A stretch of DNA of 18,745 bases from a virus (taxonomy: Duplodnaviria; Heunggongvirae; Uroviricota; Caudoviricetes). This document shows, one piece after another, positions 1,419 to 18,745 of the stretch. The DNA lies in the IMG/VR virus record IMGVR_UViG_2563366948_000001, positions 1-18,745 of that record; one strand, written 5' to 3'. Position numbers and translations under genes: made by a program. Under the pieces are notes generated by a model. That model was given only the letters and a program-made list of their open reading frames with translations, ran no database searches and was not told where the DNA came from. How positions within the stretch are numbered: position 1 is the first letter of the stretch; each line of letters starts with the position of its first letter.

Positions 1419-2489
1419 TTATTTGATTTCAATTTTGTCCCACTCCCTGCCTCTGTCATCACGATACTGTGATGCCATGGTGTCCGACTTATGCCCGAGA
1501 AGATGTTGAGCAAACTTATCGCTTATCTGCTTCTCATAGAGTCTTGCAGACAAACTGCGCAACTCGTGAAAGGTAGGCGGATCCCCTTCGAAGGAAAGAC
1601 CTGATGCTTTTCGTGCGCGCATAAAATACCTTGATACTGTGCCGGATGAAAGCGGTTCACGACGAGTAGATGCAATTATGGTTTCTCCGCCAAGAATCTC
1701 TTTGCATTTATCAAGTGTTTCCTTCATTGATATCCCGAGAGCATCAACATGCAATGTTGTTGGGATGGCAATTTTTACGCCTGTTTTGCTTTGCTCGACA
1801 TAAAGATATCCATCTACGATATCAGACCACTTCATTTCGCATAAATCACCAACTCGTTGCCCGGTAACAACAGCCAGTTCCATTGCAAGTCTGAGCCAAC
1901 ATGGTGATGATTCTGCTGCTTGATAAATTTTCAGGTATTCGTCAGCCGTAAGTCTTGATCTCCTTACCTCTGATTTTGCTGCGCGAGTGGCAGCGACAGG
2001 GTTTGTTGTTATATGGCCTTCAGCTATTGCCTCTCGGAATGCATCGCTCAGTGTTGATCTGATTAACTTGGCTGACGCCGCCTTGCCCTCGTCTATGTAT
2101 CCATTGAGCATTGCCGCAATTTCTTTTGTGGTGATGTCTTCAAGTGGAGCATCAGGCAGACCCCTCCTTATTGCTTTAATTTTGCTCATGTAATTTATGA
2201 GTGTCTTCTGCTTGATTCCTCTGCTGGCCAGGATTTTTTCGTAGCGATCAAGCCATGAATGTAACGTAACGGAATTATCACTGTTGATTCTCGCTGTCAG
2301 AGGCTTGTGTTTGTGTCCTGAAAATAACTCAATGTTGGCCTGTATAGCTTCAGTGATTGCGATTCGCCTGTCTCGGCCTAATCCAAACTCTTTACCCGTC
2401 CTTGGGTCCCTGTAGCAGTAATATCCATTGTTTCTTATATAAAGGTTAGGGGGTAAATCCCGGCGCTCATGACTTCGCCTTCTTCCCAT
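1419..2489 (-). CDS. int: Lambda integrase (tyrosine recombinase)
   Basis: 356 aa beginning MGRRRSHERRDLPPNLYIRNNGYYCYRDPRTGKEF, recognised as lambda Int; adjacent to attL. Confidence 0.95.
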   Translation of the reverse strand: MGRRRSHERRDLPPNLYIRNNGYYCYRDPRTGKEFGLGRDRRIAITEAIQANIELFSGHKHKPLTARINSDNSVTLHSWLDRYEKILASRGIKQKTLINYMSKIKAIRRGLPDAPLEDITTKEIAAMLNGYIDEGKAASAKLIRSTLSDAFREAIAEGHITTNPVAATRAAKSEVRRSRLTADEYLKIYQAAESSPCWLRLAMELAVVTGQRVGDLCEMKWSDIVDGYLYVEQSKTGVKIAIPTTLHVDALGISMKETLDKCKEILGGETIIASTRREPLSSGTVSRYFMRARKASGLSFEGDPPTFHELRSLSARLYEKQISDKFAQHLLGHKSDTMASQYRDDRGREWDKIEIK

Positions 2490-2685
2490 TTCTGATCCTC
2501 TTCAAAAGGCTACCTGTTACTGGTCGATTTAAGTCAACCTTTACCGCTGATTCGTGGAACAGATATTCTCTTCCATCCTTAACCGGAGGAGGGAATATCC
2601 TGCACTCGCGTACCCATCGACGAACTGTTTCAAGGCTTCTTGGGCGTCGTTGGCGTGCGTTCCACTCCTGAAGTGTCAAGTACAT
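2467..2685 (-). CDS. xis: Lambda excisionase
   Basis: 72 aa MYLTLQEWNARQRRPRSLETVRRWVRECRIFPPP..., recognised as lambda Xis; 3' end overlaps int start as in lambda. Confidence 0.9.
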   Translation of the reverse strand: MYLTLQEWNARQRRPRSLETVRRWVRECRIFPPPVKDGREYLFHESAVKVDLNRPVTGSLLKRIRNGKKAKS

Positions 2686-2798
2686 CGCAAAGTCTCCGCA
2701 ATTACACGCAAGAAAAAACCGCCATCAGGCGGCTTGGTGTTCTTTCAGTTCTTCAATTCGAATATTGGTTACATTGTTTTCATATATGAATAAATAAA

Positions 2799-2978
2799 TT
2801 AGCTTTTTTCGTTGCCTTCGCGTTCTTTATTAATTTTGACAAACTTGTTTTTACCACGCTCTCCAAATGCGTCTTTAGAGTCGTTGTATCCGCAATCGCA
2901 GCACACATAATCACCAGACCATCCACGCATTGTTTTTTCTTTTGCAATATTTCCAGAACCGCATTTTGGACAAGACAT
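2799..2978 (-). CDS. Small zinc-ribbon protein (CPKC...CCDC), possibly Ea8.5-like
   Basis: Track ORF 2799-3011 starts at TTG; an internal ATG at 2978 is preceded by a GGAGG Shine-Dalgarno, giving 59 aa MSCPKCGSGN... with two Cys pairs. Confidence 0.5.
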   Translation of the reverse strand: MSCPKCGSGNIAKEKTMRGWSGDYVCCDCGYNDSKDAFGERGKNKFVKINKEREGNEKS

Positions 2979-3074
2979 ATCACTACCTCCAAAGCATGAG
3001 TGAGATGACAACGTAACATTGATTGGAGATTAACAATAGATTGCTGATGTAAAAGATATGTATAAGCTTCGCTT

Positions 3075-3728
3075 TCAAAGTGGAGGCTCTGGTAGCGGCA
3101 TCCAGTGAGTTACGTCATCCAAGATATTTCCTGATAAATACGTGAAAGCTCTATATTTTTTGTAATCAATTGGATTTACAACCCAGTTCCAATATGCGGC
3201 CACGATTTCACCTTGACTAAATGCCAGTAACATTTTGGTGTCTTCCGGCATTCGATCACTACAGCTTATCCAACCACCCGGAGTTACCGGAGAGTTGCCG
3301 CGTTCTTTAATGTGCAAGCGAGGCTCACCATCTTTTGGTTCAGGCCACTGGCGTTCCATGTTGATCTTCAATTTATTTTCCATAGCAGCGGTAATTTCAG
3401 CATCACTGATACCAGCACGGCGCTGTGCATCCCACAACAGAAACTGCATATCAGCCCACTCGCTAAGATCGTCTGGTTCGGCTGCGGCTTCCAGTGCCTC
3501 TTTTGAGAGATGTTTCAGCGGACCAATGGGGCCAACGCAGCCAAATGTGGAGTCAGACCATTTGGCATGCTCGTGGCGAATCTGTTCGCGTTCCAGTGAG
3601 GCGAGAGCGATTTTAAATGCTGTAAGCATGTGTGCTTGATCGTTGTCGAGTCCGAATGGCATTTCATCTCGTGCTGACTCAATACTGGTAATCGTATTTT
3701 GTAGCCATTCTTTGGTAAAAGTGCTCAT
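3075..3728 (-). CDS. Phage protein with MazG-like nucleotide pyrophosphohydrolase-type N-terminal region and DUF551-like C-terminal region
   Basis: 217 aa; central EALEAAAEPDDLSEWADMQFLLWDAQRRAGIS...AMENKLKIN resembles MazG-type helices; C-terminal ...THWMPLPEPP resembles the prophage DUF551 motif; ATGA overlap with upstream ORF. Confidence 0.6.
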   Translation of the reverse strand: MSTFTKEWLQNTITSIESARDEMPFGLDNDQAHMLTAFKIALASLEREQIRHEHAKWSDSTFGCVGPIGPLKHLSKEALEAAAEPDDLSEWADMQFLLWDAQRRAGISDAEITAAMENKLKINMERQWPEPKDGEPRLHIKERGNSPVTPGGWISCSDRMPEDTKMLLAFSQGEIVAAYWNWVVNPIDYKKYRAFTYLSGNILDDVTHWMPLPEPPL

Positions 3729-4096
3729 CGTAAAATATCCTCTATACTGGTAAGTCCTTCATTATTTAGCCAGATCATGGCGTCATCCGGCAACTTGCTG
3801 TCTGGTTTGGCGTTTTTGAGAGAGGAACTCAGTCGCTTAATCCACATTGTCACCTCAGTAATGCGCCTGTCTTTGCCTTCCAGCTCAACACGCAGCTTCC
3901 CTACCGTTAGCGCAATATCCTCGTTCTCCTGGTCGCGGCGTTTGATGTATTGCTGGTTTCTTTCCCGTTCATCCAGCAGTTCCAGCACAATCGATGGTGT
4001 TACCAATTCATGGAAAAGGTCTGCGTCAAATCCCCAGTCGTCATGCATTGCCTGCTCTGCCGCTTCACGCAGTGCCTGAGAGTTAATTTCGCTCAC
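3725..4096 (-). CDS. Ea22-like early-left protein (hypothetical)
   Basis: 123 aa; GTG start with AGAGAGG Shine-Dalgarno; GTGA overlap with orf73 stop, so translationally coupled. Confidence 0.55.
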   Translation of the reverse strand: MSEINSQALREAAEQAMHDDWGFDADLFHELVTPSIVLELLDERERNQQYIKRRDQENEDIALTVGKLRVELEGKDRRITEVTMWIKRLSSSLKNAKPDSKLPDDAMIWLNNEGLTSIEDILR

Positions 4097-4314
4097 TTCG
4101 AACCTCTCTGTTTACTGATAAGTTCCAGATCCTCCTGGCAACTTGCACAAGTCCGACAACCCTGAACGGCCAAGCGTCTTCGTTCATCTATCGGATCGCC
4201 ACACTCACAACAATGAGTGGCAGATATAGCCTGGTGGTTCAGGCGGCGCATTTTTATTGCTGTGTTGCGCTGTAATTCTTCAATTTCTGATGCTGAATCA
4301 ATGATGTCTGCCAT
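4093..4314 (-). CDS. TraR/DksA-family C4 zinc-finger protein (lambda Orf73-like)
   Basis: 73 aa with CCECGDPIDERRRLAVQGCRTCASC four-Cys zinc finger typical of TraR/DksA; lambda carries a TraR-like orf73 in this region. Confidence 0.75.
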   Translation of the reverse strand: MADIIDSASEIEELQRNTAIKMRRLNHQAISATHCCECGDPIDERRRLAVQGCRTCASCQEDLELISKQRGSK

Positions 4315-4360
4315 CTTTCATTAATCCCTGAATTGTTGGTTAATACGCTTGAGGGTGAAT

Positions 4361-4390
4361 GCGAATAATAAAAAAGGAGCCTGTAGCTCC
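4361..4390 (-). terminator. Candidate intrinsic terminator in the leftward operon
   Basis: GGAGC-CTGTA-GCTCC hairpin (4376-4390) followed on the minus strand by TTTTTTATTATT (4361-4375). Confidence 0.4.
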
Positions 4391-4412
4391 ATGATGATTT
4401 TGTTTTTCATGC

Positions 4413-4694
4413 TCACCGTTCCTTAAAGACGCCGTTTAACATGCCGATCGCCAGGCTTAAATGAGTCGGTGTGAATCCCATCAGCGTTACCGTTTCGCGG
4501 TGCTTCTTCAGTACGCTACGGCAAATGTCATCGACGTTTTTATCCGGAAACTGCTGTCTGGCTTTTTTGATTTCAGAATTAGCCTGACGGGCAATGCTGC
4601 GAAGGGCGTTTTCTTGCTGAGGTGTCACTGAACAAGCCCCATGTCGGCAAGCATAAGCACACAGAATATGAAGCCCGCTGCCAGGAAAATGCAT
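4413..4694 (-). CDS. Small early-left hypothetical protein (lambda b-region family; start uncertain)
   Basis: 93-aa ORF; no clear Shine-Dalgarno at the ATG; an in-frame GTG with upstream GGGG would give 71 aa. Confidence 0.5.
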   Translation of the reverse strand: MHFPGSGLHILCAYACRHGACSVTPQQENALRSIARQANSEIKKARQQFPDKNVDDICRSVLKKHRETVTLMGFTPTHLSLAIGMLNGVFKER

Positions 4695-4704
4695 TCAGTG
4701 GTTG

Positions 4705-4896
4705 TCATACCTGGTCTCTCTCATCTGCTTCTGCTTTCGCCACCATCATTTCCAGCTTTTGTGAAAGGGATGCGGCTAACGTATGAAATTCTTCGTCTGT
4801 TTCTACTGGTATTGGCACAAACCTGACTCCAATTTGAGCGAGGCTATGTGCCATCTCGATACTCGTTCTTAACTCAACGGGAGATGCTTTGTGCAT
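4705..4896 (-). CDS. Lambda Orf63-like protein
   Basis: 63 aa [30 protein letters not shown]..., recognised as lambda orf63 family; a G9 run immediately upstream serves as Shine-Dalgarno. Confidence 0.7.
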   Translation of the reverse strand: MHKASPVELRTSIEMAHSLAQIGVRFVPIPVETDEEFHTLAASLSQKLEMMVAKAEADERDQV

Positions 4897-5054
4897 ACAG
4901 CCCCCCCCCGTTTATTATTTATCTCCTCAGCCAGCCGCTGTGCTTTCAGGGGATTTCGGATAACAGAAAGGCCGGGAAATACCCAGCCTCGCTTTGTAAC
5001 GGAGTAGACGAAAGTGATTGCGCCTACCCGGATATTATCGTGAGGATGCGTCAT
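4869..5054 (-). CDS. Lambda Orf60a-like protein
   Basis: Track ORF to 5060; the ATG at 5054 overlaps the exo stop (ATGA) and gives 61 aa [19 protein letters not shown]... Confidence 0.65.
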
Positions 5055-5731
5055 CGCCATTGCTCCCCAAATACAAAACCAATTTCAGCCAGTGCCTCGT
5101 CCATTTTTTCGATGAACTCCGGCACCATCTCGTCAAAACTCGCCATGTACTTTTCATCCCGCTCAACCACGACATAATGCAGTCCTTCACGCTTCATACG
5201 CGGGTCATAGTTGGCAAAGTACCAGGCATCTTTTCGCGTCACCCACATGCTGTACTGCACCTGGGCCATGTAAGCCGACTTTATGGCCTCGAAACCACCG
5301 AGCCGGAATTTCATGAAATCCCGGGAGGTAAACGGGCATTTCAGCTCAAGGCCATTGCCGTCACTGCATAAACCATCGGGAGAGCAGGCGGTGCGCATAC
5401 TTTCGTCGCGATAGATGATCGGGGATTCAATAACATTTACGCCGGAAGTGAACTCAAACAGGGTTCTGGCGTCGTTCTCGTACTGTTTTCCCCAGGCCAG
5501 CGCTTTAGCGTTAACTTCCGGAGCCACACCGGTGCAAACCTCAGCTAGCAGGGTGTGGAAGTAGGACATTTTCATGTCAGGCCACTTCTTTCCTGATCGG
5601 GGCTTTGCTATCACGTTGTGAACTTCTGAAGCGGTGATGACGCCGAGCCGTAATTTGTGCCATGCATCATCCCCCTGTTCGACAGCTCTCACGTCGATCC
5701 CGGTACGCTGCAGGATAATGTCCGGTGTCAT
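5051..5731 (-). CDS. exo: Lambda exonuclease (Red-alpha)
   Basis: 226 aa [65 protein letters not shown]..., recognised as lambda Exo; AAGGTGG Shine-Dalgarno. Confidence 0.95.
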
Positions 5732-5772
5732 GCTGCCACCTTCTGCTCAGTGGCTTTCTGTTTCAGGAAACC
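5728..5772 (-). pseudogene. bet: bet (Red-beta) 3' remnant: last ~14 codons and stop only
   Basis: Minus-strand reading ends ...[14 protein letters not shown], matching the lambda Bet C-terminus; upstream residues do not match Bet. Confidence 0.7.
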
Positions 5773-5776
5773 GAAT

Positions 5777-6028
5777 TTTGCAGGGTGGGCTAACGATATC
5801 CGTCTGATGCGTGAACGTGACGGCCGTAACCACCGCGACATGTGCGTGCTGTTCCGCTGGGCATGCCAGGACAACTTCTGGTCCGGTAACGTGCTAAGTC
5901 CGGCCAAACTCCGCGACAAGTGGACCCAACTCGAAATCAACCGTAACAAGCAACAGGCTGGCGTGACAGCCGGAAAATCAAAACTCGACCTGACAAACAC
6001 TGACTGGATTTACGGGGTGGATTTATGA
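5777..6028 (+). pseudogene. O: Replication initiator O, C-terminal ~83 codons only (no start, no ori iterons)
   Basis: FAGWANDIRLMRERDGRNHRDMCVLFRWACQDNFWSGNVLSPAKLRDKWTQLEINRNKQQAGV...LDLTNTDWIYGVDL matches the lambda O C-terminus; stop overlaps P start (ATGA). Confidence 0.8.
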
Positions 6029-6726
6029 AAAACATCGCCGCACAGATGGTTAACTTTGACCGTGAGCAGATGCGCCGGATCGCCAACAACATGCCGGAAC
6101 AGTACGACGAAAAGCCGCAGGTACAACAGGTAGCGCAGATCATCAATGGTGTGTTCAGCCAGTTACTGGCAACTTTCCCGGCGAGCCTGGCTAACCGGGA
6201 CCAGAACGAACTGAACGAAATCCGCCGCCAGTGGGTTCTGGCTTTCCGGGAAAACGGGATCACCACGATGGAACAGGTTAACGCAGGAATGCGCGTAGCC
6301 CGTCGGCAGAATCGACCATTCCTGCCATCACCCGGGCAGTTTGTTGCCTGGTGCCGGGAAGAAGCATCCGTTACCGCCGGGCTGCCAAACGCCAGCGAGC
6401 TGGTTGATATGGTTTACGAGTATTGCCGGAAACGTGGCCTGTATCCGGATGCAGAGTCTTATCCGTGGAAATCAAACGCGCACTACTGGCTGGTTACCAA
6501 CCTGTATCAGAACATGCGGGCCAATGCGCTGACTGATGCGGAATTACGGCGCAAGGCTGCCGATGAACTGGCCTGTATGACAGCGCGAATTAACCGTGGT
6601 GAGGCGATACCTGAACCAGTAAAACAACTTCCTGTTATGGGCGGGAGACCGCTTAATCGTGTTCAGGCTCTGGCGAAGATCGCAGAAATCAAAGCGAAGT
6701 TTGGGCTGAAAGGAGCAAGTGTATGA
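6025..6726 (+). CDS. P: Lambda replication protein P (DnaB helicase loader)
   Basis: 233 aa MKNIAAQMVNFDREQMRRIANNMPEQYDEKPQVQQVAQIINGVFSQLLATFPASLANRDQNELNEIRRQW..., recognised as lambda P. Confidence 0.95.
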   Translation: MKNIAAQMVNFDREQMRRIANNMPEQYDEKPQVQQVAQIINGVFSQLLATFPASLANRDQNELNEIRRQWVLAFRENGITTMEQVNAGMRVARRQNRPFLPSPGQFVAWCREEASVTAGLPNASELVDMVYEYCRKRGLYPDAESYPWKSNAHYWLVTNLYQNMRANALTDAELRRKAADELACMTARINRGEAIPEPVKQLPVMGGRPLNRVQALAKIAEIKAKFGLKGASV

Positions 6727-6896: not shown

Positions 6897-7042
6897 CGGT
6901 TAGCTACTCAGGATGATAGGGCGGGGCAAGTGAGTATGAAGCGGATTTTAAGGAATGCCATCAGAGTTTGGAAATAAAGTGGGTTTTCTAGTGGCAAGAG
7001 ACTTGATAATATTTAGTTCTTTGAATCCAAGGAGATAGGGTT

Positions 7043-7537
7043 ATGAGAAAATTTATTTTAGCCTTTGTTATAAGTGCCTCGTTTACAGCAAATGCTGGTG
7101 TAGAGAAGTTAGGGCCGTGGATAACAAAGTCTGAGATAAATAAAATGACTGACCAGACTGACTTTGTGGCTCTTAATTTATCACCAGATTCATATAACAA
7201 AGCAGGTACTGATCGTGCAACTTCACTGGTGTTGCGTTGTAGTGATAACAAAACAGATGCCTATTTATCATTCAATGATTATATGGGTTCGGACAACCCA
7301 AGAATTACAGTGCGGTTAGATGGCGGAAAGCCGGTCAAGAGTGTTTGGGGAGGTGGGGAAGGCGGTGATTCTGCATTTGCTCCACAACCAATACAATTTA
7401 TAAAGACCTTGGCTAAGCATAAAAAAGCTATTTTTGGGTTTGAACCTTATGGATCAACTATGCAAGTAGTTGAGTTTGACTTGTCTGAGATTGATAAGGT
7501 TGTGGAAAAAATTTCACAGTCTTGCAATTGGAAATGA
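7043..7537 (+). CDS. Secreted or periplasmic protein of unknown function (moron)
   Basis: 164 aa with signal peptide MRKFILAFVISASFTANA and AxA cleavage motif; strong AAGGAGA Shine-Dalgarno 8 nt upstream; AT-rich codon usage unlike flanking lambda DNA; own terminator. Confidence 0.7.
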   Translation: MRKFILAFVISASFTANAGVEKLGPWITKSEINKMTDQTDFVALNLSPDSYNKAGTDRATSLVLRCSDNKTDAYLSFNDYMGSDNPRITVRLDGGKPVKSVWGGGEGGDSAFAPQPIQFIKTLAKHKKAIFGFEPYGSTMQVVEFDLSEIDKVVEKISQSCNWK

Positions 7538-7554
7538 CAAAAAAATTTCATATG

Positions 7555-7580
7555 AACCCAGTTGGCGCTGGGTTTTTTAT
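7555..7580 (+). terminator. Intrinsic terminator of the secreted-protein gene
   Basis: AACCCAG-TTGGCG-CTGGGTT hairpin followed by TTTTTTATTT, 18 nt after the stop codon. Confidence 0.7.
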
Positions 7581-8174
7581 TTCAGTAGCCAATAATGCAT
7601 TCAAAATCTCTTACTTGAGAAACGGCCTATTTGAGATTTCAGTCGTGGCAGGATGATCAGTTGATTCGAGTATTGACGCATTTGCGTTCGGAGCGATTAC
7701 AGTAGATTGTAAATAATAATGAGAAACACATAGCCACATAGCCACCCCGTGGTATTGAAACCATATAATGTTGGATTTGAAAACAGATCTTTTCCCATGT
7801 ATTAATAACTACATCCCCGCGAGTAATTCAAAAAGGAGGGCCCAATTTTGTCCGAGTTTTTGTATTCCCCCGCATGCCGCTGCGGAGCACTACATCTGAG
7901 TGTCTGACTAGGGGATAAAATTAGACTGGATAGTGAGAAGAAAGTGGCGCGCTAGGCTGTGCCGAGTGCTACCAGTACACCTTGGGGGTGTGCAGCTTTC
8001 GCCGAGACTGTAGTGGGTATCGGTTAATGCACGAAAAACCGAGAGGTCAGACAACCAATTTGCCGTAGGATTGTTTCCGGTGCGATACCGGTCTACTAAC
8101 TGAAAGCAATGCGAAAAAGCATAAACTCGGTCCTTCAGTCGCCCTACACACTATTTACTAAGAAGGGCTGAAGC

Positions 8175-8375
8175 ATGGATACAATTATTACATGGATGGG
8201 AGATCGTCTGTTGGGGGGGACACAAAAATCCGATCTGCGGCAGATGGCGATCACTGGATTAACTTCCGCGATTTGTTCAACAATTTTGTACACTGAAAAA
8301 TTAAAACATGGTGAGCCTATTAACCCAAACGAAGAAGAAAAACTTTATAGGCTTTGGTATGAAGGAAACGCTTGA
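8175..8375 (+). CDS. Small hypothetical protein (66 aa)
   Basis: ORF MDTIITWMGDRLLGG... with GAAGGG Shine-Dalgarno-like motif upstream; no recognisable family. Confidence 0.4.
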   Translation: MDTIITWMGDRLLGGTQKSDLRQMAITGLTSAICSTILYTEKLKHGEPINPNEEEKLYRLWYEGNA

Positions 8376-8581
8376 AAGAATAAAGCACAATTAAAACCTT
8401 TGATTTGCGATAATCAACTTGCCATAATTAAGTAATCGGAGCCTGAACAACTCCGGTGACTTCTGCGCTAAACGGGGACGTTTATGCGCACATACAATCC
8501 AACCTCTCTTCTCCATTCACAGATGCAGAAATGCACCTGCGATATTTTGCATCCAGCGTTTGATCTCTGCGGAGGTGAAGC

Positions 8582-9037
8582 GTGAACCTCCCACAAGATG
8601 GTATCAAATTGCATCGCGGTAACTTCACCGCTATCGGTCGGCAGATCCAGCCTTATCTGGAGGACGGCAAATGCTTTCGTATGGTGCTTAAACCGTGGCG
8701 CGAGAGACGCAGTCTTTCCCAGAATGCACTCAGCCACATGTGGTACAGCGAAATCAGTGAATACCTCATCAGCAGGGGTAAAACGTTCGCCACTCCAGCT
8801 TGGGTAAAAGATGCTCTCAAACACACTTATCTCGGTTATGAAACCAAAGAACTGGTTGATGTCGTAACCGGTGAAATCACCACCATTCAGTCATTACGTC
8901 ATACCTCCAATCTTGATACCGGAGAGATGTATGTCTTCCTGTGTAAGGTTGAAGCCTGGGCGATGAATATTGGCTGCCACCTGACTATTCCGCAGAGCTG
9001 CGAGTTCCAGCTGCTGCGCGACAAGCAGGAGGCGTAA
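8582..9037 (+). CDS. ybcN: NinB-family recombination protein (DLP12 YbcN-like)
   Basis: 151 aa, GTG start with GGAGG Shine-Dalgarno; sequence recognised as YbcN/NinB family ([13 protein letters not shown] motif). Confidence 0.8.
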
Positions 9038-9207
9038 TGGCTACACCGCTTATTCGTGTCATGAACGGACACATCTACAGAGTACCAAATCGTCGTAAGC
9101 GTAAGCCTGAGCTGAAACCATCCGAAATACCAACACTGCTCGGATATACCGCCAGCCTGGTTGATAAAAAATGGTTGCGACTGGCAGCAAGGAGGAATCA
9201 TGGCTGA
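9037..9207 (+). CDS. ninE: NinE-family protein
   Basis: 56 aa [56 protein letters not shown]; start overlaps ybcN stop (TAATG); below track size cutoff. Confidence 0.75.
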   Translation: MATPLIRVMNGHIYRVPNRRKRKPELKPSEIPTLLGYTASLVDKKWLRLAARRNHG

Positions 9208-9490
9208 TTTGAGAAAAGCAGCGCGTGGTCGGGAATGCCAGGTAAGAATCCCTGGCGTATGTAATGGCAACCCTGAAACGTCTGTACTGGCACATATCCG
9301 GCTGACTGGATTGTGCGGCACCGGTACGAAACCGCCAGACCTGATTGCCACCATTGCATGTTCTGCCTGCCACGACGAAATCGACCGCCGCACGCATTTT
9401 GTTGACGCTGGATATGCAAAAGAATGCGCGCTGGAAGGTATGGCGAGAACACAGGTTATCTGGCTGAAAGAGGGGGTTATTAAGGCGTGA
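9200..9490 (+). CDS. ybcO: YbcO-like nin-region protein (Cys-rich, putative metal-binding nuclease-like)
   Basis: 96 aa from ATG at 9200 preceded by AGGAGG; [37 protein letters not shown]...; track ORF extends upstream without a Shine-Dalgarno. Confidence 0.75.
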
Positions 9491-9849
9491 ATACCTACAG
9501 CATCACATTACCCTGGCCTCCGAGCAATAATCGCTATTACCGCCATAATCGCGGGCGCACGCACGTCAGCGCAGAGGGGCAGGCATACCGCGATAACGTC
9601 GCCCGAATCATTAAAAACGCAATGCTGGATATCGGCCTGGCTATGCCTGTGAAAATCCGCATTGAGTGCCACATGCCGGATCGCCGTCGCCGTGACCTGG
9701 ATAATCTGCAAAAAGCCGCTTTTGACGCACTCACTAAAGCAGGTTTCTGGCTGGATGATGCTCAGGTCGTTGATTACCGCGTTGTGAAGATGCCGGTTGT
9801 CAAAGGTGGAAAGCTGGAGCTGACCATCACTGAACTGGGAGATGAATGA
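9487..9849 (+). CDS. rusA: RusA Holliday-junction resolvase
   Basis: 120 aa [42 protein letters not shown]..., recognised as RusA. Confidence 0.9.
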
Positions 9850-9986
9850 TGTTTGAGTTTTATATGGCAGAACTTCTTCGCCACCGCTGGGGGCGTCTGC
9901 GCTTATATCGTTTCCCCGGTTCTGTTTTGACCGATTACCGAATACTGAAGAATTACGCCAAAACCCTGACAGGAGCAGGAGTATGA
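9846..9986 (+). CDS. ylcG: YlcG-like small protein
   Basis: 46 aa [46 protein letters not shown]; start overlaps rusA stop. Confidence 0.55.
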
Positions 9987-10071
9987 AGTCAGAGATAACA
10001 ATCAACTAATACTGTTTCGTTGATTTTTGCTTGTAATTGGCGTTCTGGTCTGATTTTTGTGGAGTAAGTTG

Positions 10072-10455
10072 ATGCGTGATATTCAGATGGTTCTTGAGCG
10101 TTGGGGAGCGTGGGCGGCTAATAATCATGAAGATGTGACCTGGTCGTCCATTGCCGCCGGTTTTAAGGGATTAATTACTTCAAAAGTAAAATCTCGCCCG
10201 CAATGTTGTGACGATGACGCGATGATCATTTGCGGGTGCATGGCCCGTCTGAAAAAGAACAACAGCGATTTGCACGATTTATTAGTAGATTATTATGTAG
10301 TCGGTATGACATTCATGTCACTGGCAGGTAAGCATTGCTGCTCTGATGGTTATATCGGGAAAAGGTTACAGAAGGCTGAGGGCATAATTGAAGGGATGTT
10401 AATGGCATTAGATATCCGGTTAGAGATGGATATCGTTGTTAATAACTCTAATTAA
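10072..10455 (+). CDS. quuD: Late-gene antiterminator Q (DLP12 QuuD / phage-21-type Q)
   Basis: 127 aa [34 protein letters not shown]... with Cys-rich zinc-binding region; GGAG Shine-Dalgarno; track ORF starts at an upstream TTG. Confidence 0.85.
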
Positions 10456-10643: not shown

Positions 10644-11726
10644 TTAGAACTGGTAAACCATACCTACAGCAACGATATCATCGGTAGCAACGCCAGATGC
10701 TTTCGTGAAATCGCTCTTATCAATCAGGTTGATTTTGTAATCAACAAAAGTGGACATATTTTTGTTGAAGTAATAGGTTGCACCTACATCAATATATTCA
10801 ACCAGGTCCTGATCACCCCACGCACCCAAGTCTTTTCCTTTAGATTGCAGGTAAGCAACGGACGGACGCAGACCGAAGTCGAACTGATATTGTGCAACTA
10901 CTTCGAAGTTTTGTGCTTTGTTGGCAATATGGTTATTACCAAAAACAGTCATGTTCTGGGTTTCAGAATAGGTGGTAGCCAGATAGATGTTGTTCGCATC
11001 ATATTTCAGACCAGCTGCCCATACTTCAGCATTTTGACCAGATGCATTCAGGCTGTTGTTACCGTAGATAACCTGATTATTAGTGCGGTCAGATTTAGCA
11101 TAGGTTGCACCTACACCGAATCCTTCATACTCATAAGTAGTGGAGAAACCGAAACCATCACCATTAGCTTCAGTTACGTCAGTGCGGTCATTTTTACCCT
11201 GATACTGAGCAGCAAAGTTCAGACCATCAACCAGACCAAAGAAGTCGTTGTTACGATAAGTTGCAACACCAGTGGTGCGACCAGTCATGAACACATCTGT
11301 TTGGGTCCAGGTATCGCCACCGAATTCTGGCAGAACGTCAGTCCACGCACCGATGTCGTATGCTACACCGTAGTTACGGCCGTAATCGATTGAGCCGTAG
11401 TCACCGAATTTCAGGCCTGCAAATGCAAGACGGGTTTTGTCTTTGGAGGAACCTTGAGATTCAGCGCGGTTGCCTTTGAATTCATATTCCCACTGACCGA
11501 AACCAGTCAGTTGATCGTTGATTTGGGTTTCACCTTTGAAGCCAAGACGGGCATAAGTAGTATCACCATCATCTGCATCATTAGAGGAGAAGTAGTGCTT
11601 AGCATTAACTTTCCCGTACAGATCCAGCTTGTTACTGTCTTTATTATAAATTTCAGCTGCCTGAGCAGACATCGCCATCAGTACTGATGCAGCTACAGCA
11701 GAAATTGCCACTGTTAATTTTTTCAT
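10644..11726 (-). CDS. nmpC: Phage-encoded general porin (OmpC/OmpF family; NmpC/Lc-like), apparently intact
   Basis: 360 aa with signal peptide [23 protein letters not shown], porin N-terminus [16 protein letters not shown] and C-terminal ...VYQF; sits between Q and the lysis genes on the opposite strand. Confidence 0.9.
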
Positions 11727-12154
11727 CGTGAGCCCTTTTTTTTGAACTATTATTAAAAAATGATGTCACTGCGCGATAAATATTCATCTAATCAATGTGA
11801 TTATTTCAAGATGTAAGTTTTGGTTTCTCGTTTGATTTGTGAAGTAGATCTCTATTTTTATCTGAACTTTTTTCTATCGAATCCTATTCATAGCTCTTGG
11901 CTGAATAAAAATAAATCTATTAGCCAATTTATATTAACGGCTGTTATTTATAAGTGCTCTATAATTTGAAGGTTCAATTTAAATCGGCTAAAAATAACAC
12001 TGGAAATTATTTGTTGGTTATTTGTTGAGATTTGCTTATGTATTTGTAGTGGTGTTTTCAATACTCGGTAGCATTCTCGCAAATATCATTTAGTGGTTTA
12101 CGTACGTAAAAAATTGGTTATGCTGTTAAGAGTGGTTACTTCGTCACACAGCTT
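11727..12154 (-). promoter_or_regulatory. AT-rich porin upstream region (promoter or regulator-binding candidate)
   Basis: ~430 bp strongly AT-rich with phased A/T tracts immediately upstream of the porin start; no ORF. Confidence 0.35.
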
Positions 12155-12299: not shown

Positions 12300-12515
12300 A
12301 TGAAATCCATGGATAAGTTAACAACGGGTGTCGCCTATGGCACCTCAGCAGGTAGTGCCGGGTACTGGTTTTTACAGCTGCTAGATAAAGTCACGCCCTC
12401 ACAGTGGGCGGCAATTGGAGTGCTGGGTAGCCTGGTATTTGGCCTGCTGACGTACCTGACAAACCTTTATTTCAAGATTAAAGAAGATAAGCGTAAGGCT
12501 GCGAGAGGTGAATAA
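12300..12515 (+). CDS. essD: Class II pinholin (S21-type) with dual-start motif
   Basis: 71 aa [29 protein letters not shown]...; Met1-Lys-Ser-Met4 dual start typical of S21 antiholin/holin; two TM segments. Confidence 0.9.
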
Positions 12516-13012
12516 TGTCGCCATCATTACGCAAGGCTGTAGCAGCTGCTATTGGTGGTGGGGCTGTTGCCATAGCGTCTGTGCTCATCACTGGTCCGAG
12601 TGGTGACGATGGTCTGGAAGGTGTCAGCTACATACCATATAAAGATATTGTTGGTGTATGGACTGTATGTCACGGGCATACAGGAAAAGACATCATGCTC
12701 GGTAAAACGTATACCAAAGCAGAATGCAAAGCACTCTTGAATAAAGACCTTGCCACTGTCGCCAGACAAATTAACCCGTACATCAAAGTCGATATACCGG
12801 AAACAACGCGCGGCGCTCTTTACTCATTCGTTTACAACGTGGGTGCTGGCAATTTCAGAACATCGACGCTTCTTCGCAAAATAAACCAGGGCGATATCAA
12901 AGGCGCATGTGATCAGCTACGTCGCTGGACATATGCTGGCGGTAAGCAATGGAAAGGTCTCATGACTCGTCGTGAGATTGAGCGTGAAATCTGTTTGTGG
13001 GGTCAGCAATGA
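12515..13012 (+). CDS. rrrD: SAR endolysin (signal-anchor-release lysozyme, R21-type)
   Basis: 165 aa; N-terminal Gly/Ala-rich weakly hydrophobic SAR segment [20 protein letters not shown], then lysozyme domain; start overlaps holin stop. Confidence 0.9.
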
Positions 13013-13470
13013 ACAGAGTAACCGCGATTATCTCCGCTCTGGTTATCTGCATCATCGTCTGCCTGTCATGGGCTGTTAATCATTACCGTGATAACGCCAT
13101 TACCTACAAAGCCCAGCGCGACAAAAATGCCAGAGAACTGAAGCTGGCGAACGCGGCAATTACTGACATGCAGATGCGTCAGCGTGATGTTGCTGCGCTC
13201 GATGCAAAATACACGAAGGAGTTAGCTGATGCGAAAGCTGAAAATGATGCTCTGCGTGATGATGTTGCCGCTGGTCGTCGTCGGTTGCACATCAAAGCAG
13301 TCTGTCAGTCAGTGCGTGAAGCCACCACCGCCTCCGGCGTGGATAATGCAGCCTCCCCCCGACTGGCAGACACCGCTGAACGGGATTATTTCACCCTCAG
13401 AGAGAGGCTGATCACTATGCAAAAACAACTGGAAGGAACCCAGAAGTATATTAATGAGCAGTGCAGATAG
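13009..13470 (+). CDS. rzpD: Rz i-spanin
   Basis: 153 aa from ATG overlapping the endolysin stop; N-terminal TM segment then coiled-coil-rich periplasmic domain. Confidence 0.85.
13229..13411 (+). CDS. rzoD: Rz1 o-spanin (lipoprotein), embedded in +1 frame within Rz
   Basis: 60 aa [23 protein letters not shown]... with lipobox LVVVGC and proline-rich mature region [15 protein letters not shown]; wholly inside Rz. Confidence 0.8.
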
Positions 13471-13501: not shown

Positions 13502-13795
13502 TTATTGTGAGCAATACACACGCGCTTCCAGCGGAGTATAAATGCCTAAAGTAATAAAACCGAGAAATCCATTTACGAATGTTTGCTGGGTTTCTGTTTT
13601 AACAACATTTTCTGCGCCGCCACAAATTTGGGCTGCATCAACAGTTTTCTCCTGTCCAATTCCCGAAACGAAGAAATGATGGGTGATGGTTTCCTTTGGT
13701 GTTACTGCTGTCGGTTTGTTTCCAACAGTAAACGTCTGTTGAGCACATCCTGTAATAAGCATTGCCAGAGCGGCAGAAAACAACATTTTTTTCAT
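13502..13795 (-). CDS. bor: Bor lipoprotein (serum-resistance, lysogenic conversion)
   Basis: 97 aa MKKMLFSAALAMLITGCAQQTFTVGNKPTAVTPKETITHHFFVSGIGQEK..., recognised as Bor; track ORF extends 16 codons upstream. Confidence 0.9.
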   Translation of the reverse strand: MKKMLFSAALAMLITGCAQQTFTVGNKPTAVTPKETITHHFFVSGIGQEKTVDAAQICGGAENVVKTETQQTFVNGFLGFITLGIYTPLEARVYCSQ

Positions 13796-14186: not shown

Positions 14187-14271
14187 GACTTTTGTCGTTC
14201 AGCTATTAAATCCCATTACGAAGTAGACCAGAACGGCCAACGGGTCCTTTCCGGCGATCCGACAGGTTACG

Positions 14272-14283
14272 GGGCGGCGACCT
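14272..14283. other. cos: cosN cohesive-end sequence GGGCGGCGACCT; cosQ/cosB flank it within about 14200-14460
   Basis: Sequence CAGGTTACG-GGGCGGCGACCT-CGCGGGTTTTCGCTATTTATGAAAATTTTCCGG matches the lambda cos junction; lies 189 nt upstream of the nu1 ATG as in lambda. Confidence 0.85.
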
Positions 14284-14460
14284 CGCGGGTTTTCGCTATT
14301 TATGAAAATTTTCCGGTTTAAGGTGTTTCCGTTCTTCTTCGTCGTAACTTAATGTTTTTATTTAAAATACCCCCTGAAAAGAAAGGAAACGACAGGTGCT
14401 GAAAGCGGGCTTTTTGGCCTTTGTCGTTTCCTTTCTCTGTTTTTGGCCGTGGAATGAACA

Positions 14461-15915
14461 ATGGAAGTCAACAAAAAGCAGCTGGCTGACATTTTCGGTG
14501 CGAGTATCCGTACCATTCAGAACTGGCAGGAACAGGGAATGCCCGTTCTGCGAGGCGGTGGCAAGGGTAATGAGGTGCTTTATGACTCTGCCGCCGTTAT
14601 AAAATGGTATGCCGAAAGGGATGCTGAAATTGAGAACGAAAAGCTGCGCCGGGAGGTTGAAGAACTGCGCCAGGCCAGCGAGGCAGATCTCCAGCCAGGG
14701 ACTATTGAGTACGAACGCCATCGACTTACGCGTGCGCAGGCCGACGCACAGGAACTGAAGAATGCCAGAGACTCAGCTGAAGTGGTGGAAACCGCATTCT
14801 GTACTTTCGTGCTGTCGCGGATCGCAGGTGAAATTGCCAGTATTCTCGACGGGATCCCCCTGTCGGTGCAGCGGCGTTTTCCGGAACTGGAAAACCGACA
14901 TGTTGATTTCCTGAAACGGGATATCATCAAAGCCATGAACAAAGCAGCCGCGCTGGATGAACTGATAACCGAATCCCATCTCGGCAAGGAGCTGCTGGAA
15001 AAAGTCGAGCTGACGGAGGATAACGCCAGCAAACTGGAGGAGTTTTCGAAAGAGTGGCAGGACGCTAACGATAAGTGGAATGCCATGTGGGGCGTCAAAA
15101 TTGAGCAGACCAAAGACGGCAAACATTATGTCGCGGGTATTGGCCTCAGCATGGAGGACACGGAAGAAGGCAAGCTGAGCCAGTTTCTGGTTGCCGCTAA
15201 CCGTATCGCGTTTATTGACCCGGCAAACGGGAATGAAACGCCGATGTTTGTGGCGCAGGGCAATCAGATATTTATGAACGACGTGTTCCTGAAGCGCCTG
15301 ACGGCCCCGACCATTACCAGTGGTGGAAATCCACCGGCATTTTCCCTGACATCAGACGGAAAGCTGACCGCTAAAAATGCGGATATCAGTGGCAGTGTGA
15401 ATGCGAACGCCGGGACGCTCAACAATGTCACGGTAAATGAAAACTGTACGATTAAGGGCATGCTGGAGGCGACTCAGGTCAGAGGTGACTTCGTTAAAGC
15501 TGTATCCAAATCATTCCCGAAACAGGCTGGTACGTGGGGTAATACGGAAACACCAAACGGGACGGTTACAGTCACCATCAGCGATGATCATAACTTTGAC
15601 CGTCAAATCATTATTCCGCCCATTATCTTTAACGGAATAGCGTATAGCGATCCGGGAAGTGGTAATAACCCGGGAGGTACAAGATACACGGGTTATGGTT
15701 TTGAAGTTCGCAAAAACGGTGTATTAATCGCATCCAGAGAAACTAAAGGGGCCATTCCCGGTAGCTACAGTGCGGTTATTGATATGCCGAGTGGCAGGGG
15801 AAGCGTCACTCTGGAGTTTAAGGTTTTCCATAAAGGCAATCAGCGGGCAGGTAATATCACCGACTGTACGGTGATTGTGACCAAAAAAGCCGCTTCCGGC
15901 ATCAGTATTCGTTGA
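14461..15915 (+). CDS. In-frame fusion: terminase small subunit Nu1 (residues 1-169) joined to the C-terminal ~315 residues of tail-tip protein J
   Basis: N-terminus [34 protein letters not shown]...AALDELI is lambda Nu1; from [21 protein letters not shown]... onward it matches the lambda J C-terminal region; single 484-aa ORF. Confidence 0.85.
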
Positions 15916-15984
15916 AATTGTTATAACCCATATAAGGGCACCAGAAATGGTGCCTTTTTTATTGCAGAAAAGCGAGAGGTAATT

Positions 15985-16353
15985 ATGCGTAAACTTTATG
16001 CCGCCATTTTTTCCGCAGCCATTTGTCTGGCCGTATCCGGTGCGCCTGCATGGGCATCTGAACATCAGTCCACGCTGAGCGCGGGGTATCTTCATGCCTC
16101 GACGAACGTTCCCGGCAGCGATGATCTGAACGGGATTAACGTGAAATACCGTTATGAGTTTACGGACACACTGGGGCTGGTGACGTCATTCAGCTATGCA
16201 GGAGACAAGAATCGCCAGCTGACCCGTTACAGCGATATCCGCTGGCATGAAGATTCCGTTCGTAACCGCTGGTTCAGCGTAATGGCGGGGCCGTCTGTGC
16301 GCGTGAATGAATGGTTCAGCGCGTATGCGATGGCGGGTACCTTCTGCCCGTAA
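15985..16353 (+). pseudogene. lom: lom (Ail/Lom-family outer-membrane protein), truncated after codon 118
   Basis: MRKLYAAIFSAAICLAVSGAPAWASEHQSTLSAGYLHAS... matches lambda Lom up to ...WFSAYAMAG, then TFCP-stop; lambda Lom is ~206 aa. Confidence 0.8.
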
Positions 16354-17539
16354 GGTGAATGGTAAGGCGCTTTCAGCGGATATAACACTGACGCCGAAAG
16401 ATATTGGTACGCTTAACTCAACAACAATGTCATTCAGCGGTGGTGCTGGTTGGTTCAAATTAGCAACGGTAACCATGCCACAGGCGAGTTCTGTTGTTTC
16501 AATTACGTTGATTGGTGGCGCGGGATTTAACGTGGGGTCACCTCAACAGGCAGGTATATCTGAACTTGTTTTGCGTGCAGGTAATGGTAATCCGAAGGGG
16601 ATTACTGGTGCTTTATGGCAGCGCACATCGACAGGGTTTACAAATTTTGCCTGGGTCAATACATCTGGTGATACTTACGATATTTACGTTGCAATCGGAA
16701 ATTATGCGACTGGTGTAAATATTCAATGGGATTATACCAGTAATGCCAGCGTGACGATTCATACGTCACCAGCATATTCTGCTAATAAGCCGGAAGGGTT
16801 AACGGACGGTACAGTTTATTCACTCTATACGCCATCAGAGCAGTTTTATCCGCCTGGCGCACCAATCCCGTGGCCATCAGATACCGTTCCGTCTGGCTAT
16901 GCCCTGATGCAAGGGCAGACTTTTGACAAATCTGCATACCCGAAACTTGCAGCCGCTTATCCGTCAGGCGTGATCCCTGATATGCGTGGCTGGACGATTA
17001 AGGGCAAACCCGCCAGTGGTCGTGCCGTATTGTCTCAGGAACAGGACGGCATTAAATCGCACACCCACAGCGCCAGCGCATCCAGTACGGATTTGGGGAC
17101 GAAAAACACATCGTCGTTTGATTACGGAACCAAATCCACGAATAACACCGGGGCGCATACCCATAGTATTAGCGGGACTGCAAATAGTGCCGGTGCGCAC
17201 CAACACAAGAGTTCCGGTGCATTTGGTGGCACGAACACGAGCATTTTCCCTAATGGTTATACCGCGATTTCAAATCTAAGCGCGGGGATTATGAGCACAA
17301 CAAGCGGTAGTGGCCAGACTCGTAATGCAGGGAAGACATCATCAGATGGTGCTCATACCCACTCGCTGTCCGGCACTGCTGCAAGCGCAGGCGCACACGC
17401 ACATACTGTCGGTATTGGTGCTCATACGCACTCCGTTGCGATTGGCTCACATGGACACACCATCACCGTTAACGCTGCTGGTAACGCGGAAAACACCGTC
17501 AAAAACATCGCATTTAACTATATTGTGAGGCTTGCATAA
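16339..17539 (+). pseudogene. stf: Side tail fibre Stf, C-terminal ~400 codons only
   Basis: Open frame continuous with track ORF 16307-17539; contains tail-fibre-type His-rich repeats (GAHTHS, GAHQHK, GAHAHT, GSHGHT); no credible start; abuts truncated lom. Confidence 0.75.
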
Positions 17540-18120
17540 TGGCATTCAGAATGAGTGAACAAGCACGGACCATAAAAATTTATAATCTGCTGGCCGGAAC
17601 TAATGAATTTATTGGTGAAGGTGACGCATATATTCCGCCTCATACAGGTCTGCCAGCAAACAGTACCGATATTGCACCGCCAGATATTCCGGCTGGCTTC
17701 GTGGCTGTTTTCAACAGTGATGAGTCATCGTGGCATCTCGTTGAAGATCATCGGGGTAAAACGGTTTATGACGTGGCTTCCGGCGATGCGTTATTTATTT
17801 CTGAACTCGGTCCGTTACCGGAAAATGTTACCTGGTTATCGCCGGGAGGGGAGTTTCAGAAGTGGAACGGCACAGCCTGGGTGAAGGATACGGAAGCAGA
17901 AAAACTGTTCCGGATCCGGGAGGCGGAAGAAACAAAAAACAGCCTGATGCAGGTAGCCAGTGAGCATATAGCGCCGCTTCAGGATGCTGTGGATCTGGAA
18001 ATCGCAACGGAGGAAGAAACCTTGTTGCTGGAAGCCTGGAAAAAGTATCGGGTGTTGCTGAACCGTGTTGATACATCAACTGCACCGGATATTGAATGGC
18101 CAGTAGCACCTATAGGGTAA
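17539..18120 (+). CDS. tfa: Tail fibre assembly protein Tfa
   Basis: 193 aa [54 protein letters not shown]..., recognised as lambda Tfa; start overlaps stf stop. Confidence 0.9.
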
Positions 18121-18237: not shown

Positions 18238-18256
18238 GTACGGTAATGACTCCAAC

Positions 18257-18634
18257 TTATTGATAGTGTTTTATGTTCAGATAATGCCCGATGACTTTGT
18301 CATGCAGCTCCACCGATTTTGAGAACGACAGCGACTTCCGTCCCAGCCGTGCCAGGTGCTGCCTCAGATTCAGGTTATGCCGCTCAATTCGCTGCGTATA
18401 TCGCTTGCTGATTACGTGCAGCTTTCCCTTCAGGCGGGATTCATACAGCGGCCAGCCATCCGTCATCCATATCACCACGTCAAAGGGTGACAGCAGGCTC
18501 ATAAGACGCCCCAGCGTCGCCATAGTGCGTTCACCGAATACGTGCGCAACAACCGTCTTCCGGAGACTGTCATACGCGTAAAACAGCCAGCGCTGGCGCG
18601 ATTTAGCCCCGACATAGCCCCACTGTTCGTCCAT
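18257..18634 (-). CDS. insB: IS1 transposase InsB segment (made in vivo as InsAB' by -1 frameshift)
   Basis: 125-aa [51 protein letters not shown]..., recognised as IS1 InsB. Confidence 0.9.
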
Positions 18635-18678
18635 TTCCGCGCAGACGATGACGTCACTGCCCGGCTGTATGCGCGAGG

Positions 18679-18745
18679 TTACCGACTGCGGCCTGAGTTT
18701 TTTAAGTGACGTAAAATCGTGTTGAGGCCAACGCCCATAATGCGG
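18679..18745 (-). CDS. insA: IS1 InsA, 3' portion only (5' end beyond window)
   Basis: Minus-strand reading ...[18 protein letters not shown]-stop with stop at 18679-18681; contains the slippery A6C site. Confidence 0.8.

Follow-up and report, generated by a model that had tools for sequence, protein, structure and literature searches.

The window, by which we mean the whole 18,745-nucleotide stretch of DNA analysed here, very probably represents most of a cryptic (defective) lambda-like prophage inserted at attB-lambda, between ybhC and ybhB-bioA, in an E. coli strain. We are likewise confident in reading the element as a cryptic prophage of the DLP12 type whose cos is a passive relic. It shows lambdoid gene order at a prophage att site and has lost functions by deletion and IS insertion: the lesions that place it among the cryptic prophages are three mapped deletions and one IS1. 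Since the work on qsr'/DLP12 and Qin it has been known that cryptic lambdoid prophages can keep cos and a Nu1 homologue, and a complete packaging site together with an integration module in a decayed lambdoid prophage is the ordinary pattern, as in DLP12 of K-12.

The left end of the window is the host gene ybhC (1–1284, minus strand), which flanks attB-lambda on the gal side, lies outside the element, and is annotated in the 99.9%-identical locus of E. coli C21 (L001). The window aligns with scaffold KE137010.1 (GCA_000408345.1; locus L004) with no mismatches over 14,285 nucleotides, and its nearest matches in the complete-genome collection are all from E. coli. It ends inside an IS1 (18242–18745, minus strand; inverted repeat at 18242; PF03400), cut off by the window end 2 nucleotides before a 10-N scaffold gap within the same IS1. 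In L004 the IS1 is flanked on both sides by the 9-nucleotide target duplication GGCGAGTAC, and because the flanks match in this way the scaffold join across IS1 is sound. Beyond the window the scaffold continues with the rest of IS1, an AraC-family gene, IS3 remnants, a lambda-type P arm and core ACTTTTTTATACTAA, ybhB and bioA.

These boundaries give the attL-to-attR length, which the sequence-only reading had proposed to determine: it is 20,629 nucleotides core to core as scaffolded, and approximately 20.8 kb when a full 768-nucleotide IS1 is allowed for. The element is thus 43% of the length of lambda, and a dimer of 41.6 kb would be 86%. A tRNA scan of the window found none, and the element is therefore not a tRNA-site island. 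The only Rfam match was IS009, inside tfa, with no regulatory RNA near cos or att. The left 5.8 kb are 99.95% identical to the prophage that occupies this site in E. coli C21, which has complete sets of genes for recombination, immunity, replication, terminase, head and tail, and complete-looking prophages sit at attB-lambda in other strains as well. The sequence comparison suggests that the element derives from a prophage like the complete-looking one of C21.

The integration module is closely similar to that of lambda. The attL site (BOP', 1320–1461) comprises the B arm, the 15-nucleotide core GCTTTTTTATACTAA at 1331–1345 and the P' arm. The core occurs once in the window as an exact match, which 0 of 200 shuffles reached, and positions 1331–1658 are the same as lambda from 27724 onward, the first difference being at 1659, inside int. 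The int gene (1419–2489, minus strand) encodes a lambda-type tyrosine integrase of 356 amino acids that carries H164P, A245T and I248V relative to lambda Int, differs at one residue from the Int of phage PhiR70_1, and keeps the whole R-K-H-R-H-Y catalytic set (R212, K235, H308, R311, H333 and Y342). The excisionase gene xis (2467–2685, minus strand; 72 amino acids) has G59S as its sole substitution. A consensus promoter scan of 2400–6400 found no leftward site for xis-int, which is weak negative evidence.

The attR core lies outside the window, at 17500–17514 of L004. Its P arm differs from that of lambda from X1 to the core, and we therefore suspected a defective attR; this was rejected because phages PhiR70_1 and mEp332 carry the same P-arm allele, with identities of 98.7% and 98.1%, respectively. 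The CAACTTT core-site variant of attR is common to both phages, and PhiR70_1 pairs a nearly identical Int allele with the P-arm allele found in the attR of the element. The components of the lambda recombination module are consequently all present: the catalytic set with Xis, and attL and attR with core and P' and P arms. The comparison with lambda bears out the earlier claim that Int, Xis and the attL core and arm are intact, and a defect of attR or int, either of which had been named as grounds for abandoning the idea of mobility, is not seen: attR looks natural and the catalytic residues of Int are kept.

The packaging site is also complete, as the sequence-only reading had claimed, with cosQ, cosN, I2 and R3-I1-R2-R1 all lying within 14242–14436. 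The position of cosQ in lambda was reportedly described by Wieczorek and Feiss in 2001. In the element this packaging-termination subsite (GGGTCCT, 14242–14248, plus strand; −30 to −24), whose role has been described (PMC4669245), has the sequence and the distance from cosN that it has in lambda. The cosN cohesive-end sequence GGGCGGCGACCT (14272–14283, plus strand) is lambda bp 1–12, the nicking site with its flanks extending over 14270–14285, and I2 (14289–14321, plus strand) has no differences from lambda. In cosB, R3 (14321–14336, plus strand), R2 (14380–14395, inverted, identical to lambda) and R1 (14421–14436, plus strand) occur with I1 between R3 and R2, in the order, orientation and spacing of lambda. 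R3 has one change, at bp 53, which is outside the TerS-contact segment of bp 55–63, where mutations at bp 56, 58 and 59 hurt packaging (PMC9026076); R1 has one change, at its first base.

Overall, window positions 14272–14967 are 98.4% identical to lambda 1–697. The sequence is that of lambda from −16 to +52, cosQ is likewise free of differences, and the cosN-to-R3 spacing is unchanged, with no indel before bp 137. There are seven differences from lambda: −17 T>C, C53T, A73G, T102C, a 1-nucleotide deletion near 137, C151T and T176G. All except T176G (six of the seven) are common to the deposited phage 2H10, to whose allele the cos of the element is 99.1% identical; T176G, which lies between R1 and the Nu1 start, is absent from 2H10 and Stx1_112808, the two phages aligned. 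The match is not due to chance, because the 271-nucleotide cos region matches 87 phage records with E values down to 8e-114.

To the right of cos, homology to lambda extends for 696 nucleotides; to the left it covers only 32 nucleotides and resumes at Rz-bor. Since similarity to lambda stops 32 nucleotides left of the nick, a truncated cos was considered, and was rejected. The phage matches listed (30 of the 87 records) all begin at this same point; 305 complete E. coli genomes share the left flank of cos in the window at 100% identity, and one of them has it in a prophage that also carries Nu1, A, W, portal and head genes; and cosQ falls within the conserved part of the flank. The common starting point, the occurrence of the flank beside a full terminase and head set, and the position of cosQ inside it identify the end of similarity as a general mosaic joint. 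A terminase of lambda specificity may still be able to cut this cos and package from it; the pointers are indirect, namely the 99.1% identity to the 2H10 allele and the viable lambda recombinants to which the similar DLP12 cos region gives rise.

The rest of the prophage has fared less well. The sequence-only reading held that terminase A and all capsid and tail genes are deleted. This is right for A and the head genes: no A, W, B, C, D, E or further gene through I is left, and most of J is gone. It is wrong for the tail, as the J C-terminus, lom', 'stf and tfa remain. The leftover tail genes were thus missed, together with a second large deletion that affects immunity and replication, a third deletion, and the fusion of Nu1 to J.

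Deletion junction 1 (5764–5772) joins lambda 32069, at the 3' end of bet, to 39321, inside O, across a short microhomology. It has removed bet, gam, kil, cIII, N, pL, the repressor, pR, cro, cII and the N-terminal part of O with ori, and corresponds to the absence of positions 17768–23685 of the C21 locus. The lambda ori iterons (39034–39118) fall within the deleted interval, and only the last ~265 nucleotides of O are left, so that there is no initiator; by gene content against lambda and C21, no repressor, N or cII is left either. Junction 2 (14964–14967) joins lambda 697, in Nu1, to 17967, in J, at the microhomology GATA, with loss of the Nu1 end, A, all head genes, tail genes Z through I, and most of J. 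Nu1 breaks off at residue 169 of 181 and reads on in frame into the C-terminal third of J, and the resulting Nu1'::'J gene (14461–15915, plus strand) encodes 484 amino acids, consisting of Nu1 1–169 (with L132I) and approximately the last 315 J residues (PF07471, PF09327 and PF12421). The fusion keeps the DNA-binding and oligomerisation domains and loses the last 12 Nu1 residues. Junction 3, near 16325–16339, joins lom to the tail-fibre gene, and an alignment with locus L002 jumps there from 7376 to 9433; the truncated genes lom' (15985–16353) and 'stf (16307–17539) together occupy 15985–17539 on the plus strand. Junctions 1 and 2 are resolved to the base and junction 3 is placed within ~15 nucleotides.

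At least three microhomology deletions (bet to O, Nu1 to J, and lom to stf) and the insertion of IS1 would account for the present form of the element. The cos survived because it is located just upstream of the left breakpoint of the head and tail deletion, and in the DLP12-type remnants compared this breakpoint is at or beyond the 3' end of Nu1. The retention of cos is therefore explained without any use of cos by the element, and nothing indicates such use. We note that int, xis, attL, attR and all the cos subsites survive beside four other lesions. Such survival is somewhat more intact than random decay predicts, and is a point against reading the cos as a relic.

Lambdoid prophages are rich in repeats, and the window ends 2 nucleotides before a gap inside IS1, so misjoining of prophage repeats in a draft genome might be thought to have created both the deletions and the combination of cos and att. 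Misassembly was rejected, and its probability is negligible: the Nu1'::'J junction is found with its surroundings in independent assemblies from NCBI, ENA and Logan, the IS1 flanks carry their matching target duplication, and two further loci (L005 and L006) reproduce 13.8–13.9 kb, including junctions 1 to 3, with 7–8 mismatches.

The remaining genes of the element are those of a lambdoid prophage. Between 2780 and 5060 (minus strand) are the early-left accessory genes, identified from Pfam and the C21 annotation: a dATP/dGTP pyrophosphohydrolase-DUF551 gene, an Ea22-like gene, a TraR/DksA zinc finger gene, DUF1382 and DUF1317. Exo (lambda exonuclease; 5051–5731, minus strand) is intact and agrees with lambda Exo at 223 of 227 positions, and replication protein P (6025–6726, plus strand; PF06992) is intact but orphaned and agrees at 229 of 234, the stop codon being counted in both cases. 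There follow the nin/Q block of ybcN, ninE, ybcO, rusA, ylcG and quuD (8582–10455, plus strand; Pfam), 97.4% identical to K-12 DLP12; an intact prophage porin of the nmpC/ompC type (10644–11726, minus strand; 360 amino acids; PF00267 and PF13609), annotated as porin in C21; the lysis cassette of essD (holin), rrrD (lysozyme) and rzpD/rzoD (spanins) at 12300–13470 (plus strand), identified from Pfam and the C21 and DLP12 annotations; and the bor/iss lipoprotein gene (13502–13795, minus strand; PF06291), which is iss in C21. The tail-fibre assembly gene tfa (17539–18120, plus strand; 193 amino acids; PF02413) is intact and 94% identical to lambda 21836–22535.

This gene order matches that of DLP12 in K-12, which is int-xis-exo'-deletion-P'-nin-quuD-porin-essD/rrrD/rzpD-bor-cos-nohD-deletion-tfa-appY. 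Even the AraC-family gene appY has a counterpart, in the AraC-family gene that the element carries before attR. Nucleotide identity is 93–98% in the late region from ybcN to nohD, and K-12 DLP12 has intact cosQ and cosN and the same C53T change in R3. The two prophages differ in location, DLP12 being at argU with a different integrase whereas the element is at attB-lambda with lambda-type Int, Xis and att. They also differ in what has decayed: exo, P and porin are intact and Nu1 is truncated in the element, whereas K-12 DLP12 has a full-length nohD, only pseudogenes for exoD and peaD, and an nmpC interrupted by IS5. The deletion breakpoints of the element and DLP12 are independent. DLP12 of E. 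coli B has an independent Nu1'-'J junction of its own beside an intact cos, with the Nu1 breakpoint 2–3 nucleotides from that of the element and the J breakpoint elsewhere.

The sequence-only reading suggested that the element could be excised and its cos cut and packaged in trans by a helper, as in cos-type satellites. The first half of this has support, since the cis sites are intact in sequence; the comparison with satellites fails. A helper-dependent cos satellite would be excised by Int and Xis, cut and packaged by the helper terminase, and transferred as a unit in the manner of the cos PICIs (EcCICFT073 and relatives). These islands resemble the element in having an integrase, an excision function and a lambda-like cosQ and cosN with no capsid or large-terminase genes, and they are packaged by the lambda or phi80 terminase (PMC6092414, PMC9026076). 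By definition, however, a PICI occupies att sites that prophages never use, is free of phage lytic and structural genes, measures ~15 kb, and has its own replicon, helper-dependent induction and interference functions (PMC6092414), and the E. coli cos-PICIs carry Rpp and have a cos without phage-type cosB (PMC9026076).

The element departs from this description throughout. It occupies attB-lambda, the canonical lambda site, and not an island-specific one; it has lost the lambda ori and most of O, and the Pfam matches for its called genes include no primase or Rep family; holin, lysozyme, spanins, the J C-terminus, 'stf and tfa are present; and at ~20.8 kb core to core it is larger than the one-third of a helper genome (typically ~15 kb) expected of a PICI. 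Among the ORFs scanned against Pfam families there was no Stl- or AlpA-type regulator, Rpp or capsid-remodelling family, and we found no repressor, antirepressor or AlpA-type regulator in the element. The cos-type PICIs, by contrast, have their own replicon, AlpA-type induction and Rpp, lack phage-type cosB and lysis genes, are typically ~15 kb in size, and use att sites that prophages never use. The element, judged by its sequence, thus falls short of a PICI or satellite on every feature compared.

Length leads to a similar result. An element length incompatible with cos packaging had been named in advance as evidence against mobilisation, and this is what the monomer shows at 43% of lambda; a dimer at 86% would fit. 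The accepted lower limit for a stable lambda virion is said to be ~78% of lambda (Feiss et al. 1977). In favour of a satellite, cos, int, xis, attL and attR appear functional from their sequences, the dimer would be of packageable length, and multimers of PICI EcCICFT073 are packaged in lambda capsids of full size (PMC6092414). However, the packaging of both cosmids and PICIs depends on concatemers generated by replication (PMC4856287, PMC6092414), and the element can make none because its origin and initiator are deleted. The dimer fits by length, but rare recombination is the only route to it. No regulator links the element to a helper and no PICI-type gene is present, the cosB is of the phage type and not the Rpp-dependent type, the prophage att site, lysis genes and tail-fibre remnants are kept contrary to the PICI definition, and none of 5,426 complete genomes contains the element. 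We therefore regard a helper-dependent satellite as very improbable, and return to the cryptic prophage with a relic cos.

On its own this cryptic prophage is inert, with no induction, replication or particles, because it lacks a promoter-regulator circuit and an origin. A superinfecting or co-resident phage with the packaging and integration specificity of lambda could nevertheless act on its cis sites: excision and cos cutting in trans are compatible with the sequence. Given the anatomy, site integrity, deletions and length observed, we infer three routes by which a helper might do so, described here in decreasing order of likelihood. In the most likely, terminase would cut the resident cos in situ and the break would stimulate homologous recombination beside cos, by which the Q-porin-lysis-bor/iss region or the cos-Nu1 sequence could pass into the phage genome. 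Recombinants between lambda and DLP12 are ~100-fold more frequent than those with Qin or Rac (De Paepe et al., PMC3945230); 10 of 19 junctions adjoin cos, and those with DLP12 nu1 are viable. The DLP12 cos lies within homology to lambda, and the authors credited double-strand breaks made by terminase at cos, possibly in DLP12 as well as in lambda (PMC3945230). By analogy, a recombination hot spot is expected beside the cos of the element.

In the second route, a helper would be integrated at attL; its cos and the resident cos would have the same orientation, and the interval between them could be packaged without excision. A helper on the left (attL) gives a cos-to-cos distance of 40.7 kb, which at 84% of lambda is packageable, while a helper on the right (attR) gives 28.7 kb, which at 59% is too short. 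In laboratory strains that hold a partial attL-to-cos prophage, a helper phage packages the DNA between two chromosomal cos sites in situ, and in such partial prophages (for example MF532, attL through cos, and the "passive prophage" strains) the resident part likewise can supply the downstream cos (PMC4669245). Cosmids provide a second parallel, as sub-genomic cos DNA packaged as multimers (PMC4856287). The laboratory partial prophages are engineered and cosmids replicate, whereas the element is a natural remnant without an origin. In the third route, Int and Xis supplied in trans would excise a 20.8-kb circle, which would not replicate and would be a poor packaging substrate.

Copies of the remnant are rare. 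In junction-specific searches neither the bet/O nor the Nu1/J junction was found in 5,426 complete E. coli genomes; the lone junction match with 100% coverage (MSB1_9I) was rejected, as it consists of two pieces 772 nucleotides apart and not of a junction. In a large assembly collection the identical Nu1'::'J protein occurs on only 14 contigs, from independent assemblies. The copies differ by 7–8 nucleotides over 13.8 kb, which is consistent with clonal descent. A further copy of part of the element is found in a Qin-like remnant (GCA_012744775.1; L007), which contains window positions 14240–17854, from cosQ through tfa, at 99.8% identity. There the block adjoins relBE-hokD-rem-csp genes, the sequence left of cosQ is unrelated, and the chromosomal site is a different one. 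The cos-to-tfa block has thus been exchanged between remnants, most simply by homologous recombination. It could also be proposed that the remnant, or the block from cos rightward, spreads horizontally through cos-initiated packaging by lambda-type helpers, for which we see a slim chance. Such spread may proceed through a dimer made by recombination, through the cos-to-cos interval beside a tandem helper, or through rightward in-situ packaging that starts at the orphan cos. If it does occur, the 99.8% identical block in the Qin-like remnant would be a trace of such transfer, and cos-phage-mediated transduction would have natural launch pads in the orphan cos sites of cryptic prophages.

The conservation of the fusion protein also bears on a possible role in defence, in which the cos would titrate terminase or provoke chromosome cutting as an anti-phage decoy, or Nu1'::'J would be a dominant-negative small terminase subunit. 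In favour of this, the in-frame fusion shows 100% conservation on the 14 contigs and in two different prophage contexts; moreover, TerS binds TerL through its C-terminal part, and it is by pairing with TerS that Rpp blocks the phage (PMC9026076). The decoy fusion would be loosely analogous to the PICI Rpp proteins, which bind TerS. However, an in-frame join has a 1-in-3 chance of arising, and with only 7–8 nucleotide differences over 13.8 kb the conservation reflects recent common descent rather than selection. In addition, the fusion gene is in the late operon, which the Q of the element is not expected to activate now that pR is gone, and in REL606 the Nu1/J junction is apparently not in frame, the small-subunit CDS ending ~70 nucleotides past it and the J remnant being an annotated pseudogene. 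We therefore give a decoy function little credence. The block exchange and the close Nu1 breakpoints leave a small probability for cos-linked mobility or a function of the fusion protein.

The cryptic prophage with its relic cos is a useful negative result for the recognition of satellites: an intact cos with a set of int, xis and att is insufficient to call one, and the deciding features are a replicon, a regulatory link to a helper, and element length. If orphan cos sites do launch packaging in nature, lateral-type transduction would extend to cos phages, although there is no sign of this here. A consequence of a resident cos that has already been measured is the recombination hot spot with infecting lambda. 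The element provides a clean example, at attB-lambda, of a recurring form of decay in which immunity and replication genes and head and tail genes are lost and the segment Q-porin-lysis-bor-cos is kept.

An abrupt mosaic joint lies at positions 14240–14241 of the window, 2 nt left of cosQ, and all of the lambda-like phage matches listed start there. To the left of the joint there are at least two flanks unrelated to each other; the flank in the window itself is found with 100% identity in 305 complete E. coli genomes. From the joint onwards, positions 14240–17854 match positions 9780–13394 of L007, a Qin-like remnant locus in E. coli GCA_012744775.1 that adjoins relBE-hokD-rem-csp genes. The identity is 99.8% (7 mismatches in 3,615 nt, the majority of them apparently inside cosB), and the block common to the two loci comprises cosQ, Nu1'::'J, lom'::'stf and tfa. 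Both the Nu1'::'J and the lom'::'stf deletions are present in each locus, and the cos-to-tfa block has therefore been transferred between two cryptic prophages that have no other relationship. The tfa coding sequence also contains a full-length match to Rfam IS009 (RF02111; window 17882–18080, plus strand, 221 bits).

The Nu1'::'J ORF (window 14461–15915) is an in-frame join predicted to encode a protein of 484 amino acids, in which the receptor-binding end of J follows the winged-helix DNA-binding and oligomerisation parts of TerS. The same predicted protein sequence occurs on 14 contigs. The DLP12 prophage of E. coli B REL606 carries an independent Nu1'-'J deletion. The left breakpoints of the two within Nu1 are at most 3 nt apart (lambda 697 in the window, approximately 699–700 in E. 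coli B), whereas the right breakpoints in J differ, at lambda 17967 and 16141 respectively. The short microhomology at the junction is GATA here (window 14964–14967) and TACC in REL606 (L015 approximately 9100–9104). The near coincidence in Nu1 could be due to chance, or the Nu1/A boundary could be a hot spot. At window 16325–16339, lom and the tail-fibre gene have been brought together by another internal deletion, of approximately 2.06 kb, giving a lom' ORF of 122 amino acids and an overlapping 'stf ORF of 410.

The P arm of attR lies beyond the window, at 17290–17514 of scaffold KE137010.1 (L004). It is lambda-like across P1-H1-P2 and diverges from lambda between the Xis/Fis sites and the core; the core site is CAACTTT, compared to CAGCTTT in lambda. 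Since phages PhiR70_1 and mEp332 carry the same P-arm allele together with a lambda-type Int, the arm is a natural variant within the lambda integration system.

In the nin region, a 164-residue ORF (window 7043–7537, plus strand) gives a borderline Pfam match to VasI of type VI secretion (26.7 bits, cut-off 26.5). It is labelled TagO in the E. coli C21 prophage, and its surroundings (window 7000–8500) are ORF-poor and AT-rich. The nmpC/ompC-type porin gene (window 10644–11726, minus strand, 360 amino acids) is intact here; in K-12 DLP12 an IS5 interrupts it, and in E. coli B an IS1 does. Ahead of the lysis genes comes an AT-rich stretch, at window 11501–12000 (34% GC).

Like this element, K-12 DLP12 has an exo-to-P deletion that removed the immunity and replication region, and both end with an AraC-family gene. 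However, the deletion breakpoints differ (window 5764–5772; L018 3362–3377 in K-12), and the AraC-family gene here (L004 15750–16502, before attR) is unrelated to the appY of K-12 DLP12. The decay of the two prophages is thus convergent.
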